Source of the DNA: Chamaesiphon sp.
GTDB taxonomy: Bacteria > Cyanobacteriota > Cyanobacteriia > Cyanobacteriales > Chamaesiphonaceae
Length of the DNA stretch: 64,000 bases
Direction of reading: 5' to 3'
Assembly: GCA_965246715.1 (NCBI GenBank)
Contig: CBDFFH010000027.1
Location: forward strand, 128,001-192,000
The position numbers and the translations under genes are program-made. Shown here piece after piece: positions 24,472-42,141 of the stretch. Positions within the stretch are counted from its first letter, which is position 1, and every line of letters begins with the position of its first letter. A model generated the notes under the pieces. It was not told the DNA's origin. It saw nothing but the letters and a program-made list of their open reading frames with translations, and did not search any database.

Positions 24472-24496
24472 TTGGCGAAGCCTCTCCTTCAGGAGA
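24472..24496 (-). repeat. Double-hairpin element, 25 nt
   Basis: Minus strand CGAT[TCTCC tgaa GGAGA GGC ttc GCC AA]CG; the paralog has an empty TCGATCGA. Confidence 0.92.
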
Positions 24497-24592
24497 ATCG
24501 ATTTCTTTTTTCTAAGTAGACGTTTTGCCTGTAAAATTCGCAATTGAATTTGATAAGCGTGCGGCGGCATTCCAAAAGTTCTGCTAAAAGAT

Positions 24593-24614
24593 TACCTCCG
24601 GTAGGCTATGCCAA
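24593..24614 (+). repeat. Double-hairpin element, 22 nt
   Basis: AGAT[TACC tcc GGTA GGC tat GCC AA]CG. Confidence 0.92.
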
Positions 24615-25183
24615 CGGTTGAGATGAAAGGAACTCAAATTCGCCACCTGTGCCAATTGCTCTAACGATATTTCTCGATTGTAATTATCTTCTAGATAGTC
24701 ACGAACGTGATGGACAGGCTGAATTTCCGTTTCTAAATTGGCGAGATCCGGTGGTTTTTCTGAATAGCGGAGAATTAATTGTGCTAACAAATCTAGGGTC
24801 AATGTTTGTTGTTCGAGACCAGAGGTAGATCGTTCGATGGCTTGATGAACTCGAACGAATTGGGTATTAAAGTCGCCGTCATGGACTAATGGCAGTGGGA
24901 AAAGTGGCAGATCTGTCTCGCGTCCCGCAACTTCTGTCGCCACTTGTTGAAGTAAATCTATACCCACCCGTAGCCCGCGAAAAGTGCCGCTCCGCTCGCT
25001 AGGAGCATCGACTTGATGCAATTCACCTGGCTGTGTCACAACTAAGGTTTCTGAGGACACGCTGTGGATCGTGCCTCGGTAGTTTAACTGCCAGCCGTTA
25101 CCCTGTCTAAGGTTAAGCTCCAGTTCTTCATGAAAATGGCGGGGCAATGAAAAGCTTTTACAAGTATTCTGAAAGAATTCGAT

Positions 25184-25205
25184 TACCTCCGGTAGGCTAC
25201 GCCAA
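25184..25205 (+). repeat. Double-hairpin element, 22 nt
   Basis: CGAT[TACCTCCGGTAGGCTACGCCAA]CG; the paralog has an empty site at 26534-26539. Confidence 0.93.
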
Positions 25206-25294
25206 CGATGGCAGGTATCGCGATCGCCAAAGTTTAGGACGTAATAGATCTTCTTTCATCGGCAGATTTGCTTTCATAAATAGATTTAAGGAAC

Positions 25295-25669
25295 TCAAGT
25301 TTGTGCCAGCACAAGTGACTTGTTAAACTGCCGCAGGGGTTCAATTTTGACTGGCAGTTTCTCTCCTAACCACAGAGCATAATCTGTATGGTCTGCCACT
25401 GCATCTCCCGTATTAGGGTGAATGAGAATATCTAAGTTTTCGCGGTGCAGCATTAGCCAAGGCACGACCTTATCGAACTGATCTAAGGCAAAAGCAGCCT
25501 GGTACATCGACTTTGGATGAGGGCCGATCGGTCGATCGTGCCAGCTTCCCAACTGCACTTCAAAGCGATCGCCTAATCCATACCGCACACGCTCTGCCAT
25601 CTCGCGGGTCGTGAGGTCGTAATAAATATGGGCATGAAAGCTGGTAATTTCAGCGGTGTGTTCCAGCAT
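25295..25669 (-). CDS. DOPA 4,5-dioxygenase family protein
   Basis: FHAHIYY, PIGPHP, LIHPNTG...DHT and ALWLG motifs. Confidence 0.92.
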   Translation of the reverse strand: MLEHTAEITSFHAHIYYDLTTREMAERVRYGLGDRFEVQLGSWHDRPIGPHPKSMYQAAFALDQFDKVVPWLMLHRENLDILIHPNTGDAVADHTDYALWLGEKLPVKIEPLRQFNKSLVLAQT

Positions 25670-25730
25670 GTATTTTAATTTTGCCGATTTTGGATGTTAT
25701 GACTTTCTGGTTAAGAACGAACGTGCCTAT

Positions 25731-25790
25731 AACCTAACAAATCTAAACACTGAAACTTATCATGTTCTTGCTGTCTCGAACGTATTGCAT
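25731..25790 (-). promoter_or_regulatory. Putative AraC-activated promoter embedded in the araC 3' end
   Basis: CGAGACAGCAAGAACATGATA-N21-TAGGTT. Confidence 0.65.
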
Positions 25791-26591
25791 CGGCGTAACG
25801 AAAACGAGCCGCTTGAAGTGCGTTCCAAAGTGGCTTTGACTCGCAAATCCGGTGGCAATGGCTACTTTTTCGATCGATAGCTCCTGTCTGAGTAGCCTTT
25901 TTGCTTGCAATATTCGCACTTGAATTTGATAAGCGTGCGGTGGCATTCCAAATATTTGGCGAAACGAGCGATTGAGATGAAACGAACTCAAATCGGCAAT
26001 CTGTGCTAGTTGCTCTAGCGAGATCTCTCGACTGTAATGGTCTTCGAGATACGATCGAACGCGCTCGATGGGCTGACGTTCTTGTCCTAATCTAACCAGA
26101 CAAGGTGGATTGTCAGCACAGCGCAGAATCAATCGTGCTACCAAATCCTGGATCGTAGTTTGTTGTTCGAGTTGAGAACCCGATTGCGATATGGATTGAT
26201 GAACTCGCACGATTTGGTGAGTGAGATCGCGGTCGTGGACTAACGGCTTCGGAAAAAATGGCACCGCTGTTTTGTGTCCAGCAATTTCTAGAGCAACTTG
26301 TTGAAGTAAATCTAGATCGATCCGTAGCCCTCGAAATGTACAGTCTCGCTCGCTCATCCAATTAGCATGATGGACTTCGCCAGGTTGTGTCACTACTAAG
26401 GTATCTGACGGAACGCTATACATCGCGCCGCGATAGTTAAACTGCCACCCGTCACCTTGTCTAATGACAAGCTCCAGTTCCTCATGAAAATGGCGGGGCA
26501 ATGAAGCGGCTTTAGAAACACTATGCACCAACTCGATCGATGGCAGGTAGTGCGATCTCCAAACTCTAATGTGTGAGTGATTTACTTTCAT
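25743..26591 (-). CDS. AraC family transcriptional regulator (intact)
   Basis: PRHFHEE ligand-binding domain; GMPPHAY and GFASQSHF HTH motifs. Confidence 0.94.
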   Translation of the reverse strand: MKVNHSHIRVWRSHYLPSIELVHSVSKAASLPRHFHEELELVIRQGDGWQFNYRGAMYSVPSDTLVVTQPGEVHHANWMSERDCTFRGLRIDLDLLQQVALEIAGHKTAVPFFPKPLVHDRDLTHQIVRVHQSISQSGSQLEQQTTIQDLVARLILRCADNPPCLVRLGQERQPIERVRSYLEDHYSREISLEQLAQIADLSSFHLNRSFRQIFGMPPHAYQIQVRILQAKRLLRQELSIEKVAIATGFASQSHFGTHFKRLVFVTPMQYVRDSKNMISFSV

Positions 26592-26696
26592 AGGTGATGT
26601 TTCTAGTCGGATCGCTCGTCAGTGCCAGGGCGGACTGCTGCGACATCGCGGTAATTTACAGAGGATGCTGTCGCTGGCTTGGAGTAGGGCAGGGTT

Positions 26697-28142
26697 TTAC
26701 TCGACAATTTGAGCTTTTGCCCCTCGGCAGTCTGTTTCCCTCACTACAAATAAGGCAACCAGTAGTCCGACGATCGCGAAACCAACACTACCGATCTCTG
26801 CGGCTCCAAATCCTGCGGTCAATGCGATTCGCCCCGCATCTGCCACTCCATCCAACTGAGCGAGCCTTGCCTGCGTTCGAGCCGTTGAGACGGCAATCAG
26901 GATGGCGAGTCCCAACGCCGCTCCAATCTGCTGTGAGGTGTTGAGTAATCCAGATGCCATCCCTTGTTCGCGATCGCTAATGCCCGCCGTCGCCGCGATC
27001 GTCACCGAAACCAGAGTCATCACGAAGCCCAAGCCAATGATGACCGTACCGGGCAACAAATCCCGCACGAAGTTGCCCTGCACCGGAATGCGGCTCAGGT
27101 GTAAGAGTCCGACTACTACCAGCGTTATGCTGCCTGTCAGCGTCGTTTTGATGCCAAATCGGGTCGCACTTTGGGACGCGATCGGGGCAGCAACCATCGA
27201 GGCGATCGCATGGGGCAAAAATGCCAGTCCGGTTTGCAGAGCCGAATAGTGCAGCACCTGCTGCATGTACAGGGTCAAAATGAAAATCGTCGAGCCGATT
27301 GCGGCGTTCATGAGTAGTCCAATCAGATTTGCCCCAGTTAATGTTTGCAAGCGAAAGATATCCAGTGACACGAGCGGATCTTGAGCATGTGCCTCAATCC
27401 AAACAAATGCTGCCAGTAGTACCAGCGCGATCGCAAATAAAATCAACGTTGGCGCAGAACTCCAGCCCGATCCACTCGCTTGCTCTAACGCGTAAACCAG
27501 CACCACCAGTCCAGATGTCACCGTCACTGCCCCCAGGAGATCGATTTTATGGCCGCTCGATCGCGCTTGGCTTTCTGGCAGCAGGATTGGTGTGAAGAAA
27601 AGGGTCAACAAGCCGAGTGGCACATTCACAAACATCACCCATCGCCAGCTCAAGGCATCCGTAAGAATGCCACCGAGTAATACACCCACCGCAAACCCAC
27701 CCGCCGAGATCGCCCCCCAAACACTCAAAGCACGATTCCGAGCTGCTCCCTCAGCAAAAGTGGTAGTCAGAATCGAGAGGGCTGCTGGAGAAACGATCGC
27801 CGCTCCCAGTCCTTGCACGGCACGAGCCACAACCAGGATCGCTTGAGACTGAGCTAGACCCCCGATTAAAGAAGCGATTGTAAACAGTCCCAACCCGATC
27901 GTCAAGACGCGTCGCCGCCCAAACAAATCTGCCGCTCTACCGCCCAGCAGCAAAAAGCCGCCAAACGCGAGTGAATAAGCACTGACTATCCACTGTAAAT
28001 TTTGCTGCGAGAAGCCCAAATCACGCTGGATGGAGTGGAGTGCCACGTTGACGATCGAGAAGTCGAGTACCATCATGAACCGAGCCGCACAGAGCAGCAG
28101 CAGGATCGGCCACGAGCGAGAGTTCGGTGTAGTTTGAGTCAT
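26697..28142 (-). CDS. DHA2 (EmrB/QacA-like) MFS efflux transporter
   Basis: LDFSIVNVAL, GGRAADLFGRRR and WRWVMFVNVP motifs. Confidence 0.93.
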   Translation of the reverse strand: MTQTTPNSRSWPILLLLCAARFMMVLDFSIVNVALHSIQRDLGFSQQNLQWIVSAYSLAFGGFLLLGGRAADLFGRRRVLTIGLGLFTIASLIGGLAQSQAILVVARAVQGLGAAIVSPAALSILTTTFAEGAARNRALSVWGAISAGGFAVGVLLGGILTDALSWRWVMFVNVPLGLLTLFFTPILLPESQARSSGHKIDLLGAVTVTSGLVVLVYALEQASGSGWSSAPTLILFAIALVLLAAFVWIEAHAQDPLVSLDIFRLQTLTGANLIGLLMNAAIGSTIFILTLYMQQVLHYSALQTGLAFLPHAIASMVAAPIASQSATRFGIKTTLTGSITLVVVGLLHLSRIPVQGNFVRDLLPGTVIIGLGFVMTLVSVTIAATAGISDREQGMASGLLNTSQQIGAALGLAILIAVSTARTQARLAQLDGVADAGRIALTAGFGAAEIGSVGFAIVGLLVALFVVRETDCRGAKAQIVE

Positions 28143-28256
28143 TTGAGATTACTAATTTGGCAACTCCTCGGAACGTTGATTTACAAAGCATGAACGGTCG
28201 AATTTAGAACTCGAAATCTCAAGCCTGGTTGGAGGTTCGGGCGATCGAAATCTCAG

Positions 28257-28997
28257 TTACATGTTTGCGCCGCCATTGGCACAAATATCTTGTCCGGTTA
28301 ACCACCGCCCTTCTTCGCTTACCAAAAATGCCACCACGGCTGCGATGTCTTGGGGCGTTCCGACGCGATTGAAGGGAGAACTGGCAGCGGCTCGCTGCTG
28401 CACTTCTGGCGGCAAATTGCCAAACATTCCAGGAATTGTGGGACCAGGCGTGACGGTATTGACGGTAATGCCGCGAGATCCAACTTCCTTTGCCATCACG
28501 ACGGTAAACAGCTTGATGGCTGCCTTACTCGCTGTATAAAGTGCCATCCCCGATTCAGGATAAAAGGTGGTCGAAGAGGAAATATTAACGATTCTGCCAC
28601 CGTCATTCATGTGTTTAGAGGCTTCCTGCAACGCAAACAAAACGCCGCGAACATTCAGGTCAAATACTTTGTCGTACTCGTCTTCAGTCACATCCGAGAT
28701 CGCGCCCATAAAACTCATGCCAGCATTGTTAACCAGAATATCGATGCGACCAAAGTGCTGCATCGTCTCAGCGAACAGACGGCGAATATCCGCCACCTGA
28801 CTCAGACTGGCTTGGATTGCCACGCTCTTACTACCCGCTGCGGCAATCGCCTCTACAACTTCATTGGCTTCCCGTTCACTGCCAGAATAGTTGATGACCA
28901 CCGTTGCCCCGTCGCGTCCCAACTGTTCCGCAATGCCTCGCCCGATGCCGCGCGACGAGCCAGTCACGATCGCCACTTTTCCAGTTAAAGGTGCCAT
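28257..28997 (-). CDS. SDR family oxidoreductase
   Basis: TGSSRGIG, NNAG and YTASK motifs. Confidence 0.93.
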   Translation of the reverse strand: MAPLTGKVAIVTGSSRGIGRGIAEQLGRDGATVVINYSGSEREANEVVEAIAAAGSKSVAIQASLSQVADIRRLFAETMQHFGRIDILVNNAGMSFMGAISDVTEDEYDKVFDLNVRGVLFALQEASKHMNDGGRIVNISSSTTFYPESGMALYTASKAAIKLFTVVMAKEVGSRGITVNTVTPGPTIPGMFGNLPPEVQQRAAASSPFNRVGTPQDIAAVVAFLVSEEGRWLTGQDICANGGANM

Positions 28998-29078
28998 AAA
29001 TGATTGTCCTCTATGTTAATTATTCAGCCGCTTGCACGAACGGCGATCGATCGGATGATTGACAAAGATCGCCAGAAA

Positions 29079-29972
29079 TTAAATTTTTGAAAGCACATCA
29101 ATCGCGCTCGTCCACCGGACATCGGGATAGCGGTCATTATCCAGGGGTGTATTCTGGACGCTGAACATACTGTATAAATACTGCTTGAGTTGCCAGCTAG
29201 AATATACTTCTTTTTCTCCTTCTGGGTGAGCAGCGCGATCTTGTTTATTTAAGGTAGAGAAATCTACCAGACTGCCCATTGGAATGAGCTTGAATTCTGT
29301 CTTTTTAACTTCTTTGCCGATTGCCACCAATTCGTTCGGGCTAATTTGGAAACTGGCAATTCGCAGAATTTTTGGAGTTGAGACATCGATCGCGGCAGCG
29401 GCAGTATAATCTGCCGTATTATCCATCGTTGTAAAGTCGATTTTCCAGTCGGGATTATCGCCCCAATAGCCGACGCTGTGATTTTTTACATCATAAAGCG
29501 GCGTGTTAGAGTTCAAAATTTCATTGGCAAAAGCTCCGTTCAAGATCGAAGTGGCTGCGATCGAGGATTTGTCTAGATATTGATGAAACTCTTTTCGGAG
29601 ATCGAAATTTCGATTTTCACCTGTGGGCAGTTTGGTAAAGTCAGAAGCAAAATCCGAGGGAATAAAGCGCGGTACACCTGCTGAGATTGCTGCATCCAGC
29701 AGTTTGATTTGCGAGTCAACAATTGTCTCGTGCAGTCCTGCCAAAGCCGAAACCACACACGATGTGCCTTGACAGGCTTGTTTGAGTTCCTCGACATCCG
29801 ACAGATCGACAGTAATTACTTTCGCACCGAGTGCGGTTAGTTTGGGGATTTTTTCCGGTTCGCTACCGTTGCGGACGATGGCGCGAACTTCTGCCCCTCT
29901 GGCTATCAATGCTTTAATGATTCGTCCGCCGAGATTACCCGTTCCACCTGCTACTAAAATTGGCTGATTCAT
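29079..29972 (-). CDS. NmrA family NAD(P)-binding protein
   Basis: Collinear paralog of 16626-17519. Confidence 0.92.
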   Translation of the reverse strand: MNQPILVAGGTGNLGGRIIKALIARGAEVRAIVRNGSEPEKIPKLTALGAKVITVDLSDVEELKQACQGTSCVVSALAGLHETIVDSQIKLLDAAISAGVPRFIPSDFASDFTKLPTGENRNFDLRKEFHQYLDKSSIAATSILNGAFANEILNSNTPLYDVKNHSVGYWGDNPDWKIDFTTMDNTADYTAAAAIDVSTPKILRIASFQISPNELVAIGKEVKKTEFKLIPMGSLVDFSTLNKQDRAAHPEGEKEVYSSWQLKQYLYSMFSVQNTPLDNDRYPDVRWTSAIDVLSKI

Positions 29973-30020
29973 GATGTTTTGCACGTTTAAGTTTAAGGCT
30001 ATATAATCGAACCTGTCTTC

Positions 30021-30085
30021 AGCTTAATGAACTTAATCGGCGAAATCTATCACGTTCTTGCTGTCTTGAATATATTGCTTAGGAG
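30021..30085 (-). promoter_or_regulatory. Putative AraC-activated promoter in the 3' end of the araC pseudogene
   Basis: CAAGACAGCAAGAACGTGATA-N21-TAAGCT. Confidence 0.65.
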
Positions 30086-30325
30086 TGATACAAATCAGTC
30101 GCTTGAAATGTAAACCAAAGTGGCTTTGCGAGTCAAAGCCAGTTTCTGAGACGACTCGATCGATCGACCAGTCTTGACTGAGGAAACGTTTTGGTCGGTG
30201 AGATCGCGATCGTGGACTAACGGCAGCGGGAAAAATGGCAGATCTGTTTCGCGTCCAGCAACTTCGATCGCCACTTGTTGAAGTAAATCTAAACCGATCC
30301 GCAGTCCTCTAAAAGTGTAATCTCG

Positions 30326-30349
30326 TTGGCGGAGGCTCTTGCCTGAAGA
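30326..30349 (-). repeat. Double-hairpin element, 24 nt, degenerate, in frame
   Basis: TCTTC agg CAAGA GCC tcc GCC AA-CG; 8 extra codons relative to both paralogs. Confidence 0.75.
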
Positions 30350-30541
30350 GTTATCAGTCGAATCCGCCTGATGTGCTTCGCCCTGTTGTGTTATCACTAA
30401 TGTATTTGCTGGCACGTTGTGAGTCGTGCCTCTGTAATTAAACTGCCAGCCGTTACCCTGCTTGATATTTAGCTCCAGTTCTTCGTGAAAATGACGGGGC
30501 AATGAATGAGCACTTTGACCAGCACTATGCAATAACTCGAT

Positions 30542-30563
30542 TACCTCCGGTAGGCTACGCCAA
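30542..30563 (+). repeat. Double-hairpin element, 22 nt
   Basis: Identical to 25184-25205 and at the homologous codon. Confidence 0.93.
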
Positions 30564-30983
30564 CGAGGGTAGATAATGCGATCGCCAGATTCGAGTACGT
30601 GACTGCTGTGCTTTCATCGGTTATTTTAGGTACTAGTGGGAGGGCAAGGGGAACGCATCAAAATGGGATCTATTTCGATCGAATTTACCCATAAAGATTT
30701 ACCTGCTTTTCGATCTCGATCGCAAATTTAATTAGGGTACTGCGAATTGCAATATGATAATTAGCTATATTTGTGCGTATCTTGTGTCATTAAAACTCTT
30801 GATACTTATCTGTAATTTGTAAAACTACAATCTAACTGTAAACCAAGTTAGATCTAAAATCACTCTGTCGAAAGTACTGGTTTTATATTTACAAGCAAAC
30901 ATAAAACTAAACACACAAATTATTGCAGATGGCCAAAAATATTTATTGAAACCCCGCCAAAAATTTAGGAAACTCCTGTCGTG

Positions 30984-31706
30984 TTATCCGCGAGATTGAG
31001 GAATAGGATTGCGTCTGGTGTACCAAGCGTGCATCAGCAGATTTTGAAAGAATAGTACAGGTGAGTCGAATCCTCCTACTGCAATAATTGAGGCAACTTC
31101 TGACGGTGGTAGCACAGCCACATCGCGACCATAGGCGGCACTAATTTTAGCCCGAACCATTTCAATTGGCATCCCAGCAGATGCCATTATCCGCAGCCAA
31201 ATATCCAGAAGTTCTGGATAGGTTAAAGCAGATCGATCGTAAGCAAGATCGGCATTAATCATATACCCCTGAGAGCGCAGTCTTACAGCAATCTGATGAA
31301 AAAAGTTGCGCCGTTCCTCTGGTTGTAATAAGAACTGAGACACAAACAGGCAAGTTGCTGCATCAAATGTGTCCGATCCAGGTAGTGAATCAAGATAACC
31401 TTCGTAAAAAGTACAGCGGGAAGTGATGCCAATATCTTCGACCCGCTGGCGACAAATATCCAGCATCGGTGCCGCAGGCTCTACCAATGTGAACCGCCAT
31501 TGAGGAAAGGCTTGGGCAAGATCGATTACTTCTGAACCAGTGCCGACACCAACGCAGAGGATCTGGGCATCGCTTGGAAGTTCGGACAATATCCTACGCA
31601 TGAGAAAATTCAGTGCATCGCGTGTCGGCGCAAACACGGCATTCCCTTTGTCATAGGAAGAAGCCATTTGCCGATCGAACACAATAGCTGATTCTTGATT
31701 TGTCAT
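30984..31706 (-). CDS. Class I SAM-dependent methyltransferase (CmoA-like)
   Basis: ILCVGVGTGSE, VEPAAPML and FDAAT motifs; ATG at 31706. Confidence 0.88.
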   Translation of the reverse strand: MTNQESAIVFDRQMASSYDKGNAVFAPTRDALNFLMRRILSELPSDAQILCVGVGTGSEVIDLAQAFPQWRFTLVEPAAPMLDICRQRVEDIGITSRCTFYEGYLDSLPGSDTFDAATCLFVSQFLLQPEERRNFFHQIAVRLRSQGYMINADLAYDRSALTYPELLDIWLRIMASAGMPIEMVRAKISAAYGRDVAVLPPSEVASIIAVGGFDSPVLFFQNLLMHAWYTRRNPIPQSRG

Positions 31707-31797
31707 AATAAAACTAATAGTCAATCTAGTTTTACCATAGCGACTAGATCGACTATGGGCTACCAAATTATTGCTCAGTTTGTCAAAAACTTGCCCA

Positions 31798-31917
31798 TCA
31801 ACCTTTCCGATACATGTTAGGTGTGCCTGTAGTAAATCGACAAAACGTGGCGGCAAAGTGGCTTTGACTCGCAAATCCAAGCTGATAACTAATATCGCTA
31901 ATGGGTAATTGCGTCAT
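31798..31917 (-). pseudogene. C-terminal HTH remnant of another AraC regulator
   Basis: TQLPISDISYQLGFASQSHFAATFCRFTTGTPNMYRKG*. Confidence 0.7.
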
Positions 31918-32061
31918 AGGGCACTGGTCTGTTAAAGAGGGAGAGATGAAAAGCTGCGCTGAGTCAAGAGTTCATGGATAGAAAATGGGCGAAGAGAGTA
32001 ACCCATCGCCATTGAAGGAGTGACACATTTGCCAAGACCCCAATGCGGTTTAACCCAGATT

Positions 32062-32095
32062 TTGCCAGAAATTCAAAATAAGGAATTTCTGGCAA
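32062..32095. terminator. Hairpin downstream of the integrase
   Basis: TTGCCAGAAATTC-N8-GAATTTCTGGCAA. Confidence 0.55.
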
Positions 32096-32125
32096 GGTAA
32101 GCATAGCTCATATTACTTAATAGAG

Positions 32126-32249
32126 TTGACAAACCAGTCATAACAGGCTAAAAGTAAGACAAGCCCATAAAATAGCCCACGTAGTTATTTTAAATGGCTG
32201 TAAGCCTTGTATGACAAGGCTTGTGACTCTATTAGCACTACTTTGGGGT
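32126..32249 (+). repeat. att arm plus core, left copy of the inverted repeat
   Basis: Ungapped 124-bp match (102/124 by hand) to the reverse complement of 33562-33685; ends in CACTACTTTGGGGT. Confidence 0.9.
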
Positions 32250-33382
32250 TGTAGATGGCTTGTTCCAATATCAACAAACAAACATTCACTGCCGATCGCG
32301 TGAGCGTAAGTAGATAACATCATGCGCTTATCATGTCCAGTCTGTTCTGCCAGTGCGATGTAATTAGCACCGTTATGAAGCGCATGAGAGATGGCAGTGT
32401 GTCGAAGATTGTATGGTGAGCGATATTCGATCTGGCAGCTTTCAAGTATGGTTTTCCATGCTCTTCTTCTAAACGTATGGTCATTGATGGGCAAACCTTT
32501 GGGGCTGGGAAATACCAGATCGTCCGGCTGTGGCGATAGTCGATTGAATCTGGCTACCAACATCGCTCTCACATTCGGCGGTAACTGGATAGTGCGATGC
32601 TTTCCCGTTTTGGTGCCCTTTTGGTTTTGATGGCCGCGAGAGATGGATTCCCCGATCCATACTGTGCTGTAGTCCGAACCTAGATGCTGCCATCGCAACC
32701 CTGCAACTTCGCCAAATCTGCAAGCAGTAGAGGCGAGAAAGATGATGAACTCAGTGTAGTGAGAGTAATATGGATCGATCGCGAACGCTGAGATAATCGC
32801 TTGGAGTTCGGCAATAGTGAAGGGTTTCTTCTGTTGCCGATTTGGGGCTTTGTGACCCCTGGTAATCGTAGTGGTTAAACAACACTCCCAGGGATTAGAT
32901 TCGGCAACGTGGTACTTTCCCTTAGCCCAATCCCAGCAAGCTTTTAAATAGTACAGATATGATTTGACTGTCTTACTTGATGCCGATTCCAACCATTTAG
33001 TGACCAGATCCTTTGCTACAGGCTCAGTCACTTTCTCGGCAGGTTTATCACCGAGTAACCGATCGAGTTTGGACAGGATCGCTTTAAGTCTTAGCCCCGA
33101 TCCGTGAGTTATTCCCCGCTCTTGTTGATGGAAGGGAATATATTTCTCAAATAGTTCGACTGCACTAATAGCCGTGGGATCGTTCCCAAGCTTGCGAGGT
33201 TTGTATCTGAATAGTGTAGTATCGAAGTTTCCGTAGTTGATGTCTTTCTCGATCTGTGCCATCTTCATCTTGGCAGCAGACATCCCCACCGGATTATTGT
33301 GTTTGGGCAGACTGAAGCTATAGGGCTTGCCATCGTGCGAAAACCTGATAAGTAGGCTATTGCCGCGTTTTTCAATGTGCAT
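32138..33382 (-). CDS. Tyrosine recombinase/phage-type integrase with an N-terminal arm-binding domain
   Basis: TACRFGE (R), TKTGK (K), YNLRHT, TGH...Y; the C-terminal ~40 aa run through the att copy and may be non-native. Confidence 0.92.
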   Translation of the reverse strand: MHIEKRGNSLLIRFSHDGKPYSFSLPKHNNPVGMSAAKMKMAQIEKDINYGNFDTTLFRYKPRKLGNDPTAISAVELFEKYIPFHQQERGITHGSGLRLKAILSKLDRLLGDKPAEKVTEPVAKDLVTKWLESASSKTVKSYLYYLKACWDWAKGKYHVAESNPWECCLTTTITRGHKAPNRQQKKPFTIAELQAIISAFAIDPYYSHYTEFIIFLASTACRFGEVAGLRWQHLGSDYSTVWIGESISRGHQNQKGTKTGKHRTIQLPPNVRAMLVARFNRLSPQPDDLVFPSPKGLPINDHTFRRRAWKTILESCQIEYRSPYNLRHTAISHALHNGANYIALAEQTGHDKRMMLSTYAHAIGSECLFVDIGTSHLQPQSSANRVTSLVIQGLQPFKITTWAILWACLTFSLL

Positions 33383-33526
33383 AAAAACAGTGGGTGAAAT
33401 GGTGGGCGACGTACCAGCCAAACCACGCAAAACAGCACATTATTTTGAGTGCATAGACACGAAAAAGCGGCTGTTAAGAAATGGTTGGTTTCCTAAAAGC
33501 TTTGCCAGCAATATGTTTCAATCAAA

Positions 33527-33575
33527 TCGGAACGAGAGGATTTGAACCTCCGACCCCTACTACCCCAAAGTAGTG
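33527..33575 (-). other. 3' half of tRNA-Pro(GGG), att-site duplication
   Basis: CTACT-TTGGGGT-AGTAG anticodon arm, GGAGG-TTCAAAT-CCTCT T-arm and CGTTCCGA end; no D-arm or 5' acceptor strand upstream. Confidence 0.88.
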
Positions 33576-33685
33576 TAGCTAAAGATATAAGCCTTATCTT
33601 CCAAGACTTCCAGCCATTAAAAATAACTACATGGGCTATTTTATGGGCTAGTCTCATTTTCAGCCTGTTATAGTTGGTTTGTCAA
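33562..33685 (-). repeat. att arm plus core, right copy
   Basis: Contains tandem TAGCCCA arm-type repeats 12 bp apart; a similar pair lies at 33389-33408. Confidence 0.9.
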
Positions 33686-33972: not shown

Positions 33973-34542
33973 ATGGTTGTTACTCTCGATCCGCAAACAG
34001 CGCAACACCTCGAAGCTTATCAAGCTCTCAGTTCTACCGAGCGCGAACTTGTGACCCAAGCCCTCGAACGAGTTGCCAGTAAAGAAACATCAGATCCCGC
34101 GATCGAGACTCTAGCAGAATCGATCGCTGGCAGATCCTTTACCCGCACCGAACGCATCCAACTAGAAATAGAAACCCTCAGCAGACATTTCCAGCACCGC
34201 CGCCAACTGCTCGATACAGCTATTAGTGCTAGCCATGTGGCACAGATCTTGGGCACTTCTCGCCAAACCCCTCACGATCGGGTTGGCAGTCAATCCCTAA
34301 TCGCTATTAAAGAAAACGGTAAATTCTGCTTTCCAGTTTGGCAGTTCGACCCGACAGGATCGGATGGGGTTATCGATGGCTTGCCAGATATCCTCAAGGC
34401 TTTGCAAGTATCCGACTATAGCAAGCTCAATTGGCTGACTCGCCCCAACCCCTATTTAGACAACCTCACCCCAATTGAGGCTCTGAAGCAGGGAGAAAAA
34501 GAGCGTGTCTTAGCCGAAGCTAAGGCGGTAGGAGCGATCTGA
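33973..34542 (+). CDS. Putative antitoxin (HTH plus Xre/MbcA/ParS-like C-terminus)
   Basis: VAQILGTSRQT, FPVWQF and WLTRPNPYLDNLTPIEAL motifs; stop overlaps the RES start. Confidence 0.8.
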   Translation: MVVTLDPQTAQHLEAYQALSSTERELVTQALERVASKETSDPAIETLAESIAGRSFTRTERIQLEIETLSRHFQHRRQLLDTAISASHVAQILGTSRQTPHDRVGSQSLIAIKENGKFCFPVWQFDPTGSDGVIDGLPDILKALQVSDYSKLNWLTRPNPYLDNLTPIEALKQGEKERVLAEAKAVGAI

Positions 34543-35171
34543 TGGTTCGGATCGCTCTGCCACCTCCCTCAAAACCTCCTTCCCCCTCGTTCCGTACCCT
34601 TGCGGCTGGTACTAGCATCCTGCGGATTTTCGATCCTACCCGCTACGGCACTACCGCTCTAACTTTCCGTTATTACGGGCCGATCGGTCGATTCGACCAC
34701 CAACGTCCCTTGCCTAAAGGTGGATGTACTGAGGATTTAAAACGCGGTATCTCCTACGCTGGGTTGACTCTCTCTTGCTGTCTGGTTGAGTGTTTTGGCG
34801 ATAGCGGAGTTATCGAACTCAAAGGACAACAAATCGGTCGCATCCAGATCGAGCGCGAGCTTAACCTTCTAGACTTGAGAGGGAATGGAGCGATGAGGGC
34901 TGGCTCCGTCGCGGCTTTGGCTAAAATTGCCGATCGGCAGATCTCTCAAGAATGGTCGCGCTACTTTTACGAACGAACGGAATTGTATGGGCTAATAGAT
35001 GGTATTAGCTACTTCAACGCTCACAATGATGAGGAAGCATTTGCTTTGTACGAACGAGCGCAATCTGCCTTGGTTTGCCCAGATTCTCAAATTCTATCCT
35101 TAAATCATTCCAGTCTTCGTCCTGCCATTCAACAAGCATCTCTTGCCAACCATTTGGACTTTCTACCGTAA
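34542..35171 (+). CDS. RES domain toxin (NAD+ phosphorylase family)
   Basis: GRFDH, CLVECFG, LLDLRG, DGISY and ALYER motifs. Confidence 0.85.
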   Translation: MVRIALPPPSKPPSPSFRTLAAGTSILRIFDPTRYGTTALTFRYYGPIGRFDHQRPLPKGGCTEDLKRGISYAGLTLSCCLVECFGDSGVIELKGQQIGRIQIERELNLLDLRGNGAMRAGSVAALAKIADRQISQEWSRYFYERTELYGLIDGISYFNAHNDEEAFALYERAQSALVCPDSQILSLNHSSLRPAIQQASLANHLDFLP

Positions 35172-35222
35172 CGAGCGAATTAGCATCGATCGGATGGCGT
35201 GGTATTCATGTCCTTTGACAAG

Positions 35223-35326
35223 TACTAGTATTTTTGTTCTATAATAAGTTGGAAATCTAATTGCTTGCGATCGAGATGAATACGTTTACCCTCCATAACG
35301 CGAAATCCCAGTTCTCCAAATTATAG
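35223..35326 (+). pseudogene. Promoter plus first 16 codons of a Phd/YefM antitoxin; near copy of 53139-53240
   Basis: MNTFTLHNAKSQFSKL*. Confidence 0.8.
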
Positions 35327-35410
35327 TTATTAGCAGTAATTAGATCGGTTTGGCTCGAACGATCGATCTTCACTCAATCGGTTAGCTGAATCCTCAGTTC
35401 ACCTAAATTT

Positions 35411-37588
35411 ATGCGAAATCTGTTGATTGTTGAATCTGCTGGCAAAATCAAAAAGCTTAGGAGTATCCTCGGCTCTGACTGGGATGTCAAGGCATCGATC
35501 GGGCATATTCGCCAACTTGCTAACGATGGGGATGGTGCGTTAGGCTTCGACCTGGGTGCAGATACGATCGACTGTCGCTACATTCCCCGCGACGAAAGAG
35601 CCAAACAAACGATTGCCGGACTCATTGCCGCAGCCAAGCAAGCGGATCGAGTCTTCATCGCCTCAGATCCAGATCGAGAAGGTGAAGTAATTGGCTGGCA
35701 TATCGCCCAGGTATTGAAACTCAAACAGCCCCAGCGGGTTGTCTATCAGGAGATTACTGAGTCCGCAGTCAAAAAAGCGATCGCCAGCCCTCGCTCCCTC
35801 GATATGGCTCTAGTAGAGGCGGGTAGGTGTCGCGATTGTCTAGATAAATTGGTCGGCTACAAAGGCTCGCCCCTCATCTGGCGACTCAATAACGGGGCGA
35901 AAAGCGTCGGTCGTGTACAGTCCGCCACCCTGCACCTAGTCTGCCAACGAGAACGAGAAATTCAATCCTTCATACCACAAGATTATTGGTCGGTATTTGT
36001 AGACTATGCCGAAGGATTCAGAGCCTTTTACAACGGAACTGCTCAAGTTGTCTCACCAATAGCAGAGGAGGAAACTAGCGACGATGCTGGAGCTTCCGAA
36101 AAAGTCGCTGAATCGACGCGGGTATTGAGTCAGGCTGAAGCCGAAAGATTGGTGGAAATTGGAAAATCTCACCCCCATCAAGTTAAGACGATCGAAGGTA
36201 AACTCGCGCCCAAAAAGCCTCCCGCTCCATTCATCACCTCGTCACTGCAACAAGCCGCAGGTTCGCGCTTAAAGTTCAGCCCCGAACATACGATGTCAGT
36301 CGCCCAGAAACTCTACGAGGCTGGGTTGATTACCTACATGCGGACTGATTCGGTCGAACTCAGTCAGGACTTTTGCACCGCTGCACGGGAATGGCTGCTC
36401 GCTCACGATAAAGATAATGTACCTACAAAAGTTGCCAAACAGCGCAGTTCCAAAGACGCTCAGGAAGCCCACGAAGCGGTTAGACCGACCGATCTAACAA
36501 AAGCTTCAAGCGACCTCAAACAGCAGCTTTCCGAAGATGAATTCGCATTATACGTGATGATTTGGATGCGATCGATCGCGTCTCAGTGCAAACCCGCACA
36601 GATTCGCAAAACCACGATCGTCACTCAGTCTGGTGAGATTCAGTGGCAAGCCAGAGGGCAAATGCTGGAATTTGCAGGCTATGCCAAATATTGGAAGGAT
36701 ATCAGCGGCGATGCCGTATTGCCTAGCTTGCAACCCCAGCAACCGCTTACCGCAGCAAACGTCAGTCACGAGCAGAAGCAAACCCAACCACCGCCACGCT
36801 ATTCCGAGCCAAAACTCGTCCAACTGATGGAACGTAAGGGTATCGGTCGTCCTTCTACTTACGCGCCTACTATTGCCACGCTCAAGCAACGTAATTATGT
36901 CGAACTAGTTAAGAGTAAAGTGCAGCCGACGACTGTTGGTTTGCAAGTGGATGATTTTCTGATGCAAGCTTTACCAGAGTTGATTCAATCGGAATTTACG
37001 GCGGGGATGGAAACCCAACTCGATGCAATTTCCAAGGGGCAGCAAGAATGGCAAAGTTATCTAATTGAGTGGAACCGGAGCTATTTCGCGCCAGCGTTGA
37101 GTAAAGCTACTAAGAATCTACCAGAACAGGATTATGGATCGTTCCAGGGTAAGGAGCTGGAGAAATCGCGCTCGAAATGTCCGACTTGTAGCAAGCCAAT
37201 GTCTAAAGTACCGACCAAGAAGGTGAAGAAGGGCTATTTTCTCAAGTGTGAGGATGGCTGTAAAGATACTGAGGGCAAAGGGTTAGTAATGTTTTGGTCG
37301 GATCGATCGAATGAATGGCAAATTCCGCAACCTAAAACCGAGCAGTCATCTCCAGCGAAACTTACCGAACATCCTTGTCCAGTTTGCCAGAAGCCGCTGG
37401 AAGAATACAGCTACACGAAGGATGGACAAGCCAAGTCGATGTTACGGTGTTCGGATGCAGCAGCTCGAACCAAGCCCAAACACAAGGATGTCGCTTATTT
37501 TAGGGGGAAAGAGGGGGTGTGGTGGAGTCCAAAATTGGGTAATCTCGGTGCGGATGCTGCTAGATCGAGCCAGGTAAAAGCACCATAG
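35411..37588 (+). CDS. topA: Type IA DNA topoisomerase (mobile-element type)
   Basis: LIVES, DPDREGE, GRVQS, ITYMRTDS, QEAHEAVRPT, GIGRPSTY motifs and Zn-ribbon CxxC. Confidence 0.93.
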   Translation: MRNLLIVESAGKIKKLRSILGSDWDVKASIGHIRQLANDGDGALGFDLGADTIDCRYIPRDERAKQTIAGLIAAAKQADRVFIASDPDREGEVIGWHIAQVLKLKQPQRVVYQEITESAVKKAIASPRSLDMALVEAGRCRDCLDKLVGYKGSPLIWRLNNGAKSVGRVQSATLHLVCQREREIQSFIPQDYWSVFVDYAEGFRAFYNGTAQVVSPIAEEETSDDAGASEKVAESTRVLSQAEAERLVEIGKSHPHQVKTIEGKLAPKKPPAPFITSSLQQAAGSRLKFSPEHTMSVAQKLYEAGLITYMRTDSVELSQDFCTAAREWLLAHDKDNVPTKVAKQRSSKDAQEAHEAVRPTDLTKASSDLKQQLSEDEFALYVMIWMRSIASQCKPAQIRKTTIVTQSGEIQWQARGQMLEFAGYAKYWKDISGDAVLPSLQPQQPLTAANVSHEQKQTQPPPRYSEPKLVQLMERKGIGRPSTYAPTIATLKQRNYVELVKSKVQPTTVGLQVDDFLMQALPELIQSEFTAGMETQLDAISKGQQEWQSYLIEWNRSYFAPALSKATKNLPEQDYGSFQGKELEKSRSKCPTCSKPMSKVPTKKVKKGYFLKCEDGCKDTEGKGLVMFWSDRSNEWQIPQPKTEQSSPAKLTEHPCPVCQKPLEEYSYTKDGQAKSMLRCSDAAARTKPKHKDVAYFRGKEGVWWSPKLGNLGADAARSSQVKAP

Positions 37589-37680
37589 TTCGATCGCAAT
37601 TATTAAGATCGAGCATATAACCAAAAGTAAAATGTTATCTCTCTAACAAAATACTATTGCGGAAACAATGGGAGCAAATT

Positions 37681-38061
37681 ATGATAGTTACTCAAGCTCA
37701 AATCATCGAACTAGAAGAGCGACTCAGACAAGCAATGCTGCATTCTGATGTTGCCGAACTAGATGATTTAATCGCCCCCGAACTGCTGTTTACAAATCAT
37801 CTGGGGCAAATTCTTAGTAAACAGGAAGATCTTGATGCTCACCGTTCTGGGAAACTTAATCTTACCGAAATTACACCATCAGATCGACAGATTCAACTCA
37901 ATCATGGGTTTGCAGTTGTTTCTGTTTTAATGCACATATTAGGCAGCTATGAATGTACCCCAGTCGAGCAAGATATTCGATTTACCCGTGTTTGGGCGAT
38001 CTCTACTAGTGGCTCGATTCAAATTATCGCAGGTCACACTAGTGCGATTCCGCCACACTGA
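37681..38061 (+). CDS. DUF4440/NTF2-like protein
   Basis: LEERLRQAML...RFTRVW. Confidence 0.85.
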   Translation: MIVTQAQIIELEERLRQAMLHSDVAELDDLIAPELLFTNHLGQILSKQEDLDAHRSGKLNLTEITPSDRQIQLNHGFAVVSVLMHILGSYECTPVEQDIRFTRVWAISTSGSIQIIAGHTSAIPPH

Positions 38062-38078
38062 TATTAGAATGAGGTGAT

Positions 38079-38501
38079 ATGCCAAAATCGACGATCGAGT
38101 ATTGGAACCCATTGCATCAAGCACATAAAACCCTGTGGAAATCGATCGCAGGGCTTGAAGAAATGGTAGAAGAACTGACTCTCAGCATAGATATTGAAAC
38201 TGGTGAATACACCCGCTTGACTCGGTTTTATCCTGGTGCTGATACGACTAGTTTCGGTGCCAAAAGTCATGCTTATCCTGAAGAGATTTTAATTGTCAGC
38301 GGTCGTCTTTACGATCTAGCTTTCGACATGTGGCTAGAGACTGGACATTATGCCAGTAGACCACCTGGAGAGATTCACGGGCCATTCAAAACCGATCTTG
38401 GTTGTGTAGTTTTTGGAGATATCTTTTCCAGATCGAGTCCAGGAATAGCGAGTGAAAGTTCAGTATCAAAATTAAGTTTGGTCGATCGATCGAATGTATA
38501 A
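38079..38501 (+). CDS. ChrR-like cupin; probable +1 indel at 38410-38414 (true stop about 38448)
   Basis: HAYPEE...YASRPPGEIHGPF; removing one T gives VVLEISFPDRVQE*. Confidence 0.8.
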   Translation: MPKSTIEYWNPLHQAHKTLWKSIAGLEEMVEELTLSIDIETGEYTRLTRFYPGADTTSFGAKSHAYPEEILIVSGRLYDLAFDMWLETGHYASRPPGEIHGPFKTDLGCVVFGDIFSRSSPGIASESSVSKLSLVDRSNV

Positions 38502-38548
38502 GCATTAATATCGATGTGATGTCGTTGGGCTTTGCCCTGCCTTTGGCA

Positions 38549-38633
38549 ATCGAACAGCCAAGATAAGCGGCGGCACGAGTTTTTGAGTCATAAATAGAGT
38601 TTTGGAGCCGTCCGCTGCAAGCCCTGATTATGC
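38549..38633 (-). other. attC site 3 (degenerate)
   Basis: GCATAAT-CAGGGCTTGCAGCGGACGGC...GCCGCCGCTTATCTTGGCT-GTTCGAT. Confidence 0.65.
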
Positions 38634-38683
38634 CTCGTTGCTTCCAGAGATAACTGAAAGATCCACATTTCCTATTTTTAAAT

Positions 38684-39037
38684 TCATGACTCGTATCCCA
38701 AGGTTAGCAAGACCACATCTTCCAATTGAGCTATTATTTCGGGACTCAGTTGTCCTAGTGTACGAATTAAACGAGTTTTATCGAGCACTCTCATCTGAAA
38801 ACATAGGGCAACAGAATCTTGGCTGAGTCCACCATTACCTTGTTCGATGAGTAAACATATTGGCAAGGCGGCTCGGCGTTGGTTGGTGGTAAGGGGAATG
38901 GCAATGATCGTGGTGGAGAACTTGGAAACAAGGTCATTTTGGAAAATGATGACGGGGCGAATGCCCGCTTGTTCGGAACCTTGAGTTGGATTGAGGTCGG
39001 CTAGCCAGACTTCACCCCGTTTAAGAGGATGAGTCAT
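38684..39037 (-). CDS. mazF: PemK/MazF family toxin
   Basis: RGEVWLADLNPTQGSEQAGIRPVII...DS...QMRVLDK. Confidence 0.93.
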   Translation of the reverse strand: MTHPLKRGEVWLADLNPTQGSEQAGIRPVIIFQNDLVSKFSTTIIAIPLTTNQRRAALPICLLIEQGNGGLSQDSVALCFQMRVLDKTRLIRTLGQLSPEIIAQLEDVVLLTLGYES

Positions 39038-39289
39038 AATTGGTCTTCCTGATGGAGCATTACTGCATAGTCATTCATGCCTACTTCGGCAAAGGTGCGA
39101 TCTTCAGTCAGCAAACTCCGTAAACAGGTCAGCCAGTTGCATTGGATCGAGGACAACCCGATTACGACGCTGATTACGAAACTTTAAGAAAGCAATAAAA
39201 TCAGCCACTTGCTGGATTTGATTGTGAGTCAGTCGATCTAAGTCTTGTTTGAGGGCTTCAGTGCTTACAGGCATAGGAAGAAAAAACAT
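39034..39289 (-). pseudogene. Putative antitoxin (DUF2281-like) with a +1 frameshift at 39106
   Basis: QVADFIAFLK...FAD, then out of frame EDRTFAEVGMNDY...EDQL*, overlapping the toxin ATG. Confidence 0.7.
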
Positions 39290-39319
39290 TCACTGTCTCC
39301 TCCATTATAGTAAGAGATC

Positions 39320-39408
39320 GCGAAACGCCCCCGTTCACCCGCCACTAGTAACCTTTCATTCTCAACTAACTACCTTAATACGGTCGGTGTGCAACGGGAT
39401 TGTTAGAC
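39320..39408 (-). other. attC site 2
   Basis: GTCTAAC (contains the gene stop) AATCCCGTTGCACACCG...GCGGGTGAACGGGGGC GTTTCGC. Confidence 0.8.
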
Positions 39409-40362
39409 CTTCAATATGTTTGTTGCTATTTGCTGCGCCACGTCTTGATTTTGCCAGTAGCTCCCATGAGCACTGCCCCCATTTGCTAAAGCCAAGAAAG
39501 TTTGTCGAACAGGAGGTAGTTGCGCGATGAATTCCCAAAAACCAGAACCACGAGTGAGAACATCTTCTACTTGAACATAATTCTCAGAGCCAACAATTAA
39601 TTTATTGATTACTTTTTCTAGTGGCCAAGCAATTGGATCGCCAGGATGAATGAAATTGAGCCAAGGCAGCCTATTATCTCCCTGTGCAAGATTCTTCAAT
39701 AAATTCTCTAAGCCTGGGCTTAAATCATGAGTACTCTCATGATTTTCATTTTTGCCACTAATAGTAATCAGGCTAAACAAAGCAATTGGAGAACCCATAG
39801 TTTGAATGCTAGCCAGTCGAATACCTTGCCCAGGATCTTCCCCTATTCCATAAAGTCGATCTCGGATAGATTTTACACTTTGATAGCCAGAAATTTTTGG
39901 ATCATCCCAACGACTAGCAAACAAAATATCGAAGAGTATTACTGTTCCCCAACTGTGAGTTACTAAATGTAAGCGATCTTCTCCTAGCTTGTAGTCCTTT
40001 AAACCTTTAAAGATCTGTTCTTTGAGTTGATCTGCTGCCATAGAGCCAATCAGACGACTGATGTAAAGACCTGCATCTCCCACAAATTGCAATAGTTGAC
40101 TCTTGCGAAAATCTTGAAACCAAACTTGGCTCCACTTGGAAGAGCCTTTCAAACTTGACAGTAGTTCTGTTAAAGCTGCCCGATTAACATTACCCCAGTA
40201 AAGAGGCACTTTAATACAGTTACGATGGGAAGATTTCTGCTGAACTACCTCAACGATCAACTTAAACAGCTTGTCAGCATAGGTATAAATCTGTTTCTCT
40301 TCATTTTCCTGTGATTCCCGTACATTTACACCATGCAGAAATAGCACATAATCTTTTGACAT
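39403..40362 (-). CDS. alpha/beta-hydrolase-fold hypothetical protein (gene cassette)
   Basis: LFLHG, THSWG, TMGSP, HPGDPIAWP and AHGSYW motifs; low GC. Confidence 0.75.
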   Translation of the reverse strand: MSKDYVLFLHGVNVRESQENEEKQIYTYADKLFKLIVEVVQQKSSHRNCIKVPLYWGNVNRAALTELLSSLKGSSKWSQVWFQDFRKSQLLQFVGDAGLYISRLIGSMAADQLKEQIFKGLKDYKLGEDRLHLVTHSWGTVILFDILFASRWDDPKISGYQSVKSIRDRLYGIGEDPGQGIRLASIQTMGSPIALFSLITISGKNENHESTHDLSPGLENLLKNLAQGDNRLPWLNFIHPGDPIAWPLEKVINKLIVGSENYVQVEDVLTRGSGFWEFIAQLPPVRQTFLALANGGSAHGSYWQNQDVAQQIATNILKV

Positions 40363-40393
40363 AGCTAAATATACCTCTTTATAAATCTAAGCA

Positions 40394-40481
40394 GGCTAAC
40401 GATCGAGCTGAACCGCAACGCCGTCTTGCGCCGCCGTGCGGTTAGCGATAGGCGTTGTCGGTTCCAGCGACCTTGTTATCC
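40394..40481 (-). other. attC site 1
   Basis: GGATAAC AAGGTCGCTGGAACCGACAACGCC...GGCGTTGCGGTTCAGCTCGATC GTTAGCC. Confidence 0.82.
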
Positions 40482-40543
40482 CGCAGCGTTCCAGAGATTT
40501 TAACATATACTAAAAAATTATATGTTACGCTGTCGGCGATAAC
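40401..40543 (-). other. ORF-less first cassette
   Basis: About 55 bp between the attI core GTTATCG and the inverse core GGATAAC; contains TAACATATA-N9-TATATGTTA. Confidence 0.7.
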
Positions 40544-40572
40544 TATTATTAGGCGGAAAGTTTCCGCCTATT
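40537..40572 (-). other. attI site
   Basis: AATAGGCGGAAACTTTCCGCCTAATAATA-GTTATCG, 150 bp upstream of the divergent intI. Confidence 0.7.
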
Positions 40573-40693
40573 CAGCCAAATTCGGGTAGATAGACTGAAA
40601 AATTCAGCATATTCCCCATATAAAAGCAGAATGTTTCTGCCGATCATCATATTTAAGGTGGATCTGCTGAATTTTTCAACATATTGTAATATT

Positions 40694-41050
40694 ATGCAAA
40701 ATCCCCCGAAGAAGCTTCCAGACCAAGTTAGAGACGCAATCCGTCTCTAACATTATTCCTACCGCACAGAAGAAACCTACGTGCAATGGATTGTTCGATA
40801 CATTTTATTTCATAACAAGCGTCATCCCAAAGATATGGGAGTCCCAGACATAAAGGAATTTTTGACTCATCTGGCAGTCGAAGGCAACGTCGCAGCCGCT
40901 ACCCAAAATCAGAACTTCTCAACGCAATTTTATTTCTGTACCGCCAAGGTTTGCAAGCAGGAACTAGATAGTCGCATTAATGCCATCCGTGCCAAACGCC
41001 CACAGCAAATTCCGAGCGTTCTCTCTCCCGACGAAACTGATGATTTATAG
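40694..41050 (+). pseudogene. intI: Integron integrase, N-terminal fragment
   Basis: KKLPDQVRDAIRL*HYSYRTEETYVQWI...HNKRHP...FLTHLAVEGNVAAATQNQ; internal stop, frameshifts, catalytic domain absent. Confidence 0.9.
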
Positions 41051-41226
41051 CCACGTTCTGAATCGTGGAGGGCGAGGTGTTGTGAGTCCACTCGTCGATC
41101 GTTAATCACTGCTCAACGACCGATAAATTTAAGTTTGGCTCGATCGCTCGTTTCCCACAGATGAGGCAACCGAGCGACATTGGCAACAGCATCCCCGCTT
41201 TTAGCCGTTCAACTATTTTGCCGTGT

Positions 41227-42141
41227 TTACGGGTGACTTTCTCGTTCCTTATTTTTTCTTCGATCGATTTTTTTCGACGTGCTTGCTTTTGCATCTTCAC
41301 CTGAGATTTCTTTTTGGTTGGCATGGCTATTTTCTGAGGGGATAAACCTAAATTCTCTCGCACCAAAAGGGTTACTGATTGACTCTTTTCGTTTTTTATC
41401 TTGAAAACAATTCCACCATTCCATCTCCGAAATCGTATCTTCAATCGATGTATAATGCTTGCGATCGCGTAGTTCATTCAATGATGCCTCTTGTCCGAGG
41501 TTGATATAGTAATCGACATCCTCCCGATCGAAGAAAAAACTCTCCACCAAATTCTCATCAAAAGCTCGATCGATCTGCTGCTTGAGTTCGAGCGGAGCGA
41601 TGAAGGCACTCTCCATGACTAATTTAGTCCAAATATAGGAATATTCTCGTTCGAGTCTGGTTGAAAAAAGTTCCTCAAAATACTTAATTACAACTTCTCG
41701 ATCGATCGTCTCTCGAACGACCAAAATAATTAACGAACTGAGCGCAGAACTTCTCACATATTCATTCGCTTGCCGATTTTCGATTAGTTGCTGGATCGGT
41801 TCGATATTGCCGTCGCAAACACTAGCAAGAATTCTGCCTAAATCCTCCGTGACTAGATCTCCTGTAACGTCCATTGAGATCTCTCCAGGCACCGAGAAAA
41901 ACTCGACGATCGGCTGATAAGCTTGAGATTCCCTAAATTGTGCCAGTAAATACATGGCATAAATATGTAGGAAATAGTTAGGGCGTTCTGCCAACTCCTC
42001 AAGCTTAGATTTCCATTCCCTTAGTGTCGCTAATAATATCGGGGTAATTGCCGTCCGCTCGGCGATCGCTCGTTCTAAAGCTAGACGAGGAAATGTGCCA
42101 GTATAGTTCTCTAGTTCGGCGATGATTTCTGTTAATTCCAT
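41227..42141 (-). CDS. DUF1186 domain protein
   Basis: YAMYLLAQFRE...GDLVTEDLGRILASV...EYVRS...EMEWW; the C-terminus may carry indels. Confidence 0.8.
   Translation of the reverse strand: MELTEIIAELENYTGTFPRLALERAIAERTAITPILLATLREWKSKLEELAERPNYFLHIYAMYLLAQFRESQAYQPIVEFFSVPGEISMDVTGDLVTEDLGRILASVCDGNIEPIQQLIENRQANEYVRSSALSSLIILVVRETIDREVVIKYFEELFSTRLEREYSYIWTKLVMESAFIAPLELKQQIDRAFDENLVESFFFDREDVDYYINLGQEASLNELRDRKHYTSIEDTISEMEWWNCFQDKKRKESISNPFGAREFRFIPSENSHANQKEISGEDAKASTSKKIDRRKNKERESHP

Follow-up and report, generated by a model that had tools for sequence, protein, structure and literature searches.

The window analysed here is a stretch of 64,000 nt from a Chamaesiphon sp. (positions 128001-192000 of contig C27 in G000, a 55-contig draft assembly that is rich in near-identical copies of conjugative elements, ICEs). 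It contains a gene for a tyrosine integrase with an arm-binding domain (32138..33382, minus strand; Pfam PF12167 and PF00589), which is enclosed by two inverted arms and a displaced half of a tRNA gene. The integrase probably starts at the ATG at 33382 and not at the TTG at 33430, in agreement with the starts of its homologues, and the product then has 414 aa. As claimed in the preliminary description, the open reading frame runs through the left core, to a stop codon at 32138, and residues 380-414 are encoded by the inverted core and arm. The protein is 98% identical to an integrase of G015 (381 aa) and 95% identical to that on contig C9 of the same genome (379 aa), and its closest named relatives are found in Chamaesiphon genomes. 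The catalytic motifs, at residues 220, 257, 324, 348 and 358, are present up to Tyr359; the first His position reads Y-x-x-R, as it does in the paralogues. Comparison with the C-termini of homologues places the 35-residue tail beyond all catalytic residues and finds it to be non-conserved.

Arms, half-tRNA and flanking elements

A gapless alignment of 32126-32249 with 33562-33685 in reverse complement shows identity at 102 of 124 positions; with a repeat finder the pair grows to 136 nt (82% identity). The runner-up to the left arm elsewhere on the reverse strand of C27 reaches 59/124 in ungapped comparison (mean 31.5, sd 4.8). Both arms terminate in CACTACTTTGGGGT, a match to the anticodon arm of tRNA-Pro(GGG) (C9:16761-16834), and both carry a tandem AGCCCA repeat with a period of 12. 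The gapless inverted arms of 124 bp, the tRNA-Pro core and the AGCCCA repeats had all been described before, and all three hold.

The left arm proper (32126..32235, plus strand) is 95% identical to the attR arm of a complete ICE in G020 and, together with the motif census, this marks it as the putative attR-side (P) arm of a sister element, ICE C. Its tandem repeat, CCCATAAAATAGCCC at 32164-32178, is of type Y. The left arm is identical to an arm on contig C5 at 102/110 positions and to the right arm at 88/110. The right arm (33576..33685, minus strand) has a type Y repeat at 33633-33647 and would be the attR-side arm of another sister element, ICE B; it is 98% identical to an arm on contig C204 of G005, a terminal attR arm that is followed by a half-tRNA and has no integrase. 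Judged by these identities, each arm in the window appears to be an attR end from a family of tRNA-targeting conjugative elements in the genus.

Just beyond the right arm there is a near-perfect, CGATCG-rich palindrome (33697-33741), which is present in G005:C204 too. An element of 118 bp (35207-35324) occurs in five copies on C27, each near a VirB3 or topoisomerase gene, and also in G005:C204; it is possibly regulatory, or else a hot spot of recombination.

At the right junction a single strand carries the arm, core, tRNA half, P' arm and integrase. The displaced 3' half of tRNA-Pro(GGG) (33527..33575, minus strand) includes the 17-bp core (17/17) and is present at the right site only; ARAGORN found no whole tRNA within the window. 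It is followed by the P' arm of the integrase's own element (33383..33526, minus strand), which has the type X repeat CCCACCATTTCACCCAC at 33390-33406 and is 97% identical to the P' arm after the intact tRNA-Pro on C9. A 5+7+5 core on the anticodon stem-loop and a half-tRNA are thus found on the same strand as the next integrase. This layout recurs within the genus, at C5, C37 and C36 of G000 and in G020 among others, and the right junction reads as that of a tandem array, in which the arm of ICE B is followed by the tRNA-Pro 3' half and then by a third element, A, represented by its P' arm and integrase.

The sole intact tRNA-Pro(GGG) of G000 is on contig C9. Contig ends and reference order gave no overlap that would link C27 to the tRNA-Pro attL there, and C27:1-1.9 kb has the opposite orientation. 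A gene for a rolling-circle Rep_1 protein (L050:17107-17790, on C9 of G000) lies immediately upstream of the intact tRNA-Pro, whereas the upstream flank of tRNA-Pro in G015 and G020 matches C21:72-74 kb of G000 instead, suggesting that this flank has been rearranged in G000.

C27 consists for the most part of ICE DNA. The body of ICE B (33973..64000, plus strand) comprises an Xre/RES toxin-antitoxin pair, a topoisomerase gene, a piece of RecD2, cargo and a VirB3/VirB4 conjugation cluster, and continues on C27 to VirD4. The SDR, NmrA, AraC, MFS and DarT genes on the other side (1..32125, minus strand) would all be cargo of ICE C, whose conjugation clusters are further left on C27 (at 3.5-24.7 kb, with a fragment at 116-124 kb) and mirror those of ICE B in orientation. 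Part of this cargo is a DarTG-like pair (19920-21641), in which a gene for the toxin DarT is next to a macrodomain gene. VirB3, VirB4-like and VirD4 genes flank the locus on both sides on C27, with VirB4 matches that are below curated cut-offs.

The complete ICE in G020 is 95 kb long and extends from a tRNA-Val attL at 1,425,763 through integrase, primase, relaxase, VirD4, T4SS and topoisomerase genes to an arm with a tRNA-Val half at 1,520,861. This arm, the one resembling the left arm of the window, closes an ICE whose own integrase is at the far end, and is thus the attR end of the 95-kb element. The attL is accompanied by a type Y integrase and the attR arm is also of type Y; next come a type X P' arm and an integrase stub, as at the right junction of the window. 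The ICE B backbone is collinear with the G020 element, onto which C27 161.7-204 kb maps backwards and C27 3.5-24.8 kb forwards, indicating that two sister ICEs face each other. A matching attL with a restored tRNA is present for the left-arm type in G020; the intact tRNA-Pro of G000 lies outside C27. Primase and relaxase are each found just twice in G000, always on C9 behind intact tRNAs, which means that the body of element A is missing; deletion is the simplest account. Elsewhere in G000, a 46-kb element at tRNA-Val (C5:85093-131079) has a matched attL and attR of type V, followed by a tandem integrase of type W.

Arm-repeat types

Elements of this family carry a 12-bp tandem repeat in the attR arm and again just before the integrase start. 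At least six types of this repeat were distinguished (loci L088-L116), each occurring with one sequence type of the integrase N-terminal domain, and the types cross tRNA targets (Pro, Val, Thr and Ala). A tree of the N-terminal domains of 28 family integrases, from which matches starting after residue 25 or lacking a nearby ATG were omitted, clusters by repeat type and not by tRNA target; the type X clade (11 rows) has a support of 88/83, and the type Z clade (3 rows) is the only one that is starred. One integrase, L091 (G005:C223:4632-5762), is a natural chimera with an N-terminal domain that is 97% identical to that of the type Y integrase L099 and a catalytic region that is 97% identical to that of the type X integrase in the window. 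Tandem integrases thus seem to swap arm-binding and catalytic modules.

The repeat types of attL and attR agree in four pairs (G020 Val, G000 C5 Val, G005 Pro and G015 Pro). The pairing fails for the tRNA-Pro elements of G000, with three X-type P' arms and three Y-type arms, and is ambiguous in G001. The Pro sites of G000 (C9:16640, C5:216814, C5:217056, C27:160164, 161406 and 161647) comprise three type X integrases and three type Y arms; there is no type X Pro arm in G000, and a type Y Pro-targeting integrase was not found there, the best N-terminal match (63-72%) being an integrase of tRNA-Thr. This mismatch would result either from hybrids or from cross-recognition. In the window itself both arms are of type Y and the enclosed integrase is of type X, and the correlation between repeats and domains suggests that this integrase may be unable to use type Y arms. 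Among 21 junctions of an arm with a half-tRNA, both repeat types could be assigned in 11, and all 11 are mixed, which fits tandem arrays of different elements and not attP sites.

Left junction and its origin

The left recombination site (32236..32254, plus strand) has the 17-bp sequence CTACT-TTGGGGT-TGTAG (5+7+5) at 32238-32254, with 16/17 bases of the tRNA-Pro attB. These 16 matching bases are followed by the integrase tail, and the tRNA 3' half is absent. The crossover falls inside the shared GGT (32247-32249) or directly at its end. Fused to the integrase tail are the surviving 14 nt of a second integrase (32247..32260, minus strand, coding for ...AIYNH...), recognised by identity with relatives, which would be the B' half of a pseudo-att site. 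The same 14 nt are found downstream of the C9 integrase, where the remnant sits past the stop codon, and in G015, G021, G012, G005 and G011. In the allele of G015, G021 and G012 a short deletion has fused the integrase to the remnant, uninterrupted. This empty allele reads ...CCCTAAATTGGTGGT|TGTAGATGGC and that of the window ...CACTACTTTGGGGT|TGTAGATGGC, so that the two diverge precisely at the GGT closing the 7-nt anticodon loop. The G015 integrase gene, 97.5% identical to that of the window in nucleotides, has an intact tRNA-Pro upstream and primase/relaxase homology downstream. A pattern search across 39 family genomes located 7 copies of the pseudo-att site in 6 genomes; 6 of the 7 are empty, and only that in the window is filled. 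Two matches of 8 nt to the inverted core, behind L094 and L095, are due to chance.

The empty pseudo-site matches attB at 10-11 of 17 positions, and there are 7,619 positions in G000 (both strands) with at least 11/17, so that sequence alone does not account for its use. At the equivalent position 18 intact integrases match at 6-10/17, and the pseudo-site is thus no general feature of the coding sequence.

Assembled contigs of seven metagenome runs, in which rare variants are lost, bear on the junction and its orientation. In run X15, which may be the source sample of G000, an 88-nt contig with no differences to 32216-32303 spans the left junction with 34 and 54 bases. Empty alleles of the pseudo-site occur in runs X15, X18 and X19. 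A contig of run X2 has a different arm at 32247 of the same site and keeps the spacer of the pseudo-site instead of that of the tRNA; its loose end is identical over 29 nt to the type X arm of G015:C1 (one contig of 943 nt, depth 7, 30 loose bases). That a single site shows two different arms and two outcomes for the spacer favours the action of an integrase. The pseudo-site appears to have been used recurrently, with a second case that consists of this one X2 contig of depth 7. A joint of 32151 with 34300 on opposite strands, away from the cores and with 36 bases on one side, was seen in run X17.

The exact filled junction has no match in GTDB genomes or JGI metagenomes (its own genome was possibly left out of these), and no plasmid match was found. 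The tail pattern is absent from the metagenome contigs searched and occurs in 2 viral contigs, neither with an integrase match. A short copy of a piece of the inverted tRNA-Pro core, CCAAAGTAGTGCGC, is found some 180-220 bases downstream of the 3' end of tRNA-Pro at L080:10224 and L081:10346, in a different element type of G018 and G021.

We suggest, with a probability of roughly 0.78, that the arms are the attR-type ends of two sister tRNA-Pro ICEs, oriented towards each other with the integrase of a third element between them, and that the left end was joined by an integrase crossover at a weak pseudo-attB. The breakpoint at the end of the 7-nt loop, the second arm type and the empty relatives support joining at a secondary site, and with it the earlier proposal that a sister element joined the 3' end of the integrase gene there, in the opposite orientation. 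In such an event a lambda-type integrase would have crossed the arm-core of the sister element with the pseudo-site in the integrase tail. The left junction could have arisen by insertion of an incoming circle, by inversion in a tandem array, or by a deletion that ran from an inverted, resident sister end to the pseudo-site. Recombination with a resident sister end is slightly preferred to the insertion of a circle, and on that route the body of element A would have been deleted or inverted. The integrase of element A would thereby have lost its own body and gained a read-through tail of 35 residues beyond its catalytic residues. All three routes predict a reciprocal hybrid, in which the left half of the pseudo-site is joined to the core and a tRNA half. 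This junction, the partner att expected elsewhere, is absent from the 55-contig assembly, where it could be hidden in draft gaps, or it has been deleted; only three tRNA-Pro 3' halves are present in G000, on C9, C5 and C27.

The preliminary description had also offered a self-contained invertible cassette. Lambda-type integrases invert, rather than excise, the DNA between inverted attL-like and attR-like sites, and with an attL-like site on the right and an attR-like site on the left the excision reaction might flip the 1.3-kb segment. The two sites have identical 7-nt spacers, the left one at 16/17 of attB; the catalytic motifs of the integrase are present; no whole tRNA would be broken by flipping; and the arm seen at the same site in run X2 bears the integrase's own repeat type. 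In addition, a sigma-70-like match (33685-33656) aims from the right arm at the integrase gene, with none called in the left arm, but it is not above chance (5 such matches were found, 3.4 +/- 2.0 expected). Against an active cassette, the enclosed integrase differs in repeat type from both arms. The flipped right arm would continue in the same frame to a tail of equal length, past the catalytic Tyr359 and the conserved C-terminus. The arms themselves are generic ICE ends, and the layout is limited to one of the 7 copies of the site and to the window's integrase among the 28 of the family, the only ones covered. Flipping would produce two joints, one of 32126-32249 with the tRNA half and one of 33562-33685 with TGTAGATGG. 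No joint of either kind, with 32250-33561 inverted, is listed in the contigs of the seven runs, which lose rare variants, and the 88-nt contig of X15 crosses the crossover unbroken. Nothing found here directly supports a cassette, and we consider active inversion unlikely. Equally doubtful is the broader proposal that the ICE family bears an inverted pseudo-att site behind its own integrase and repeatedly captures attR arms there, so that excision becomes flipping of the integrase gene and locks the elements and their cargo in place. If the cassette did flip, it would represent an ICE trapped by its own excision reaction, its integrase toggling between two arms.

The left junction might instead have formed independently of an integrase, by illegitimate recombination at the GGT(A/T)GTAG microhomology. 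The att match of the pseudo-site is of a kind abundant in the genome, and the region is rich in deletions and IS-linked breaks. However, the break coincides exactly with the edge of the spacer in an att core, and a second, independent arm with another spacer outcome at the same site makes such an origin very unlikely.

The order of arm, core, half-tRNA, P' arm and integrase is also that of an attP, and the right site could in principle be the true attP of a single element, plasmid-like or integrated elsewhere, with the left arm as an inverted duplication of its arm. This is highly improbable given that arm and P' repeats differ in type while the four attL/attR pairs of relatives agree, that the left arm is nearer to the C5 arm than to the right arm, and that the equal layout in G020 is a tandem junction. 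Misassembly of the left junction, conceivable in a draft full of near-identical ICE copies, can practically be dismissed, since the sequences on either side of the break have only 3 bases in common there and the X15 contig represents an independent assembly of reads, possibly from the source sample.

The facing sister ends, with their crossover at the pseudo-site, thus remain the preferred reading, and the locus is probably the scar of a rearrangement and not an evolved on/off switch.

Relation to known systems and significance

The fim and hin systems are phase-variation switches that work by inversion. In programmed inversions the recombinase is encoded close to the invertible segment or within it (PMC9881135), and the locus resembles them in that inverted repeats flank a recombinase gene and one overlaps its 3' end. 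Unlike such switches, it was not seen in a second orientation, relatives do not conserve its layout, its repeats are ICE ends of a generic kind, and an alternative functional allele is not evident.

Islander describes islands of the anticodon class of tRNA sites and their tandem arrays, whose members each come with a tRNA fragment and an integrase of their own (PMC4383910). The right junction agrees with this class in its tyrosine integrase, crossover in the anticodon loop and displaced tRNA 3' fragment. In contrast to what Islander accepts, since it rejects fragments in the wrong orientation, the second core of the window is inverted, at the 3' end of an integrase gene and thus at a non-tRNA site. 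In ICEBs1 a 17-bp attB within a tRNA gene has 5-bp inverted repeats and a 7-bp spacer, mismatched secondary sites are used, and the ends inherit different spacers (PMC3715440). The window shares the 5+7+5 geometry and the secondary-site ends with different spacers. It differs in that its secondary site lies inside DNA of the ICE family itself, 1.3 kb from an att end and in the remnant of an integrase gene, that the site was used despite a primary tRNA in the genome, and that no reciprocal end was found. SGI1 and SXT/R391 are known to accumulate in tandem at one att site, to use secondary sites and to give rise to hybrids from such arrays (PMC2297512, PMC5812530). Those elements are proteobacterial and are comparable in their tandem arrays and use of secondary sites, whereas the present family is cyanobacterial, with a MOBF relaxase, VirB4 and VirD4, several tRNA targets and interchangeable arm types. 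Arm-binding domains of integrases have been treated elsewhere (PMC8138268).

Tandem ICE arrays and secondary-site recombination are both of known kinds. The cyanobacterial ICE family is apparently undescribed: judged from titles and the beginnings of abstracts, with limited coverage of subscription journals, no paper was found on it or on an inverted att arm behind an element's own integrase.

As most likely read, the locus is a natural example of tandem ICE arrays scrambling themselves. On this reading a weak att look-alike in the tail of the family's own integrase, with at least two captures by different arms, helps to explain the 200 kb of broken, mirror-image ICE pieces in this genome. Finally, the N-terminal domain of the integrase and a legible 12-bp tandem arm repeat go together whatever the tRNA target, providing natural pairs of arm site and arm domain for tests of specificity.
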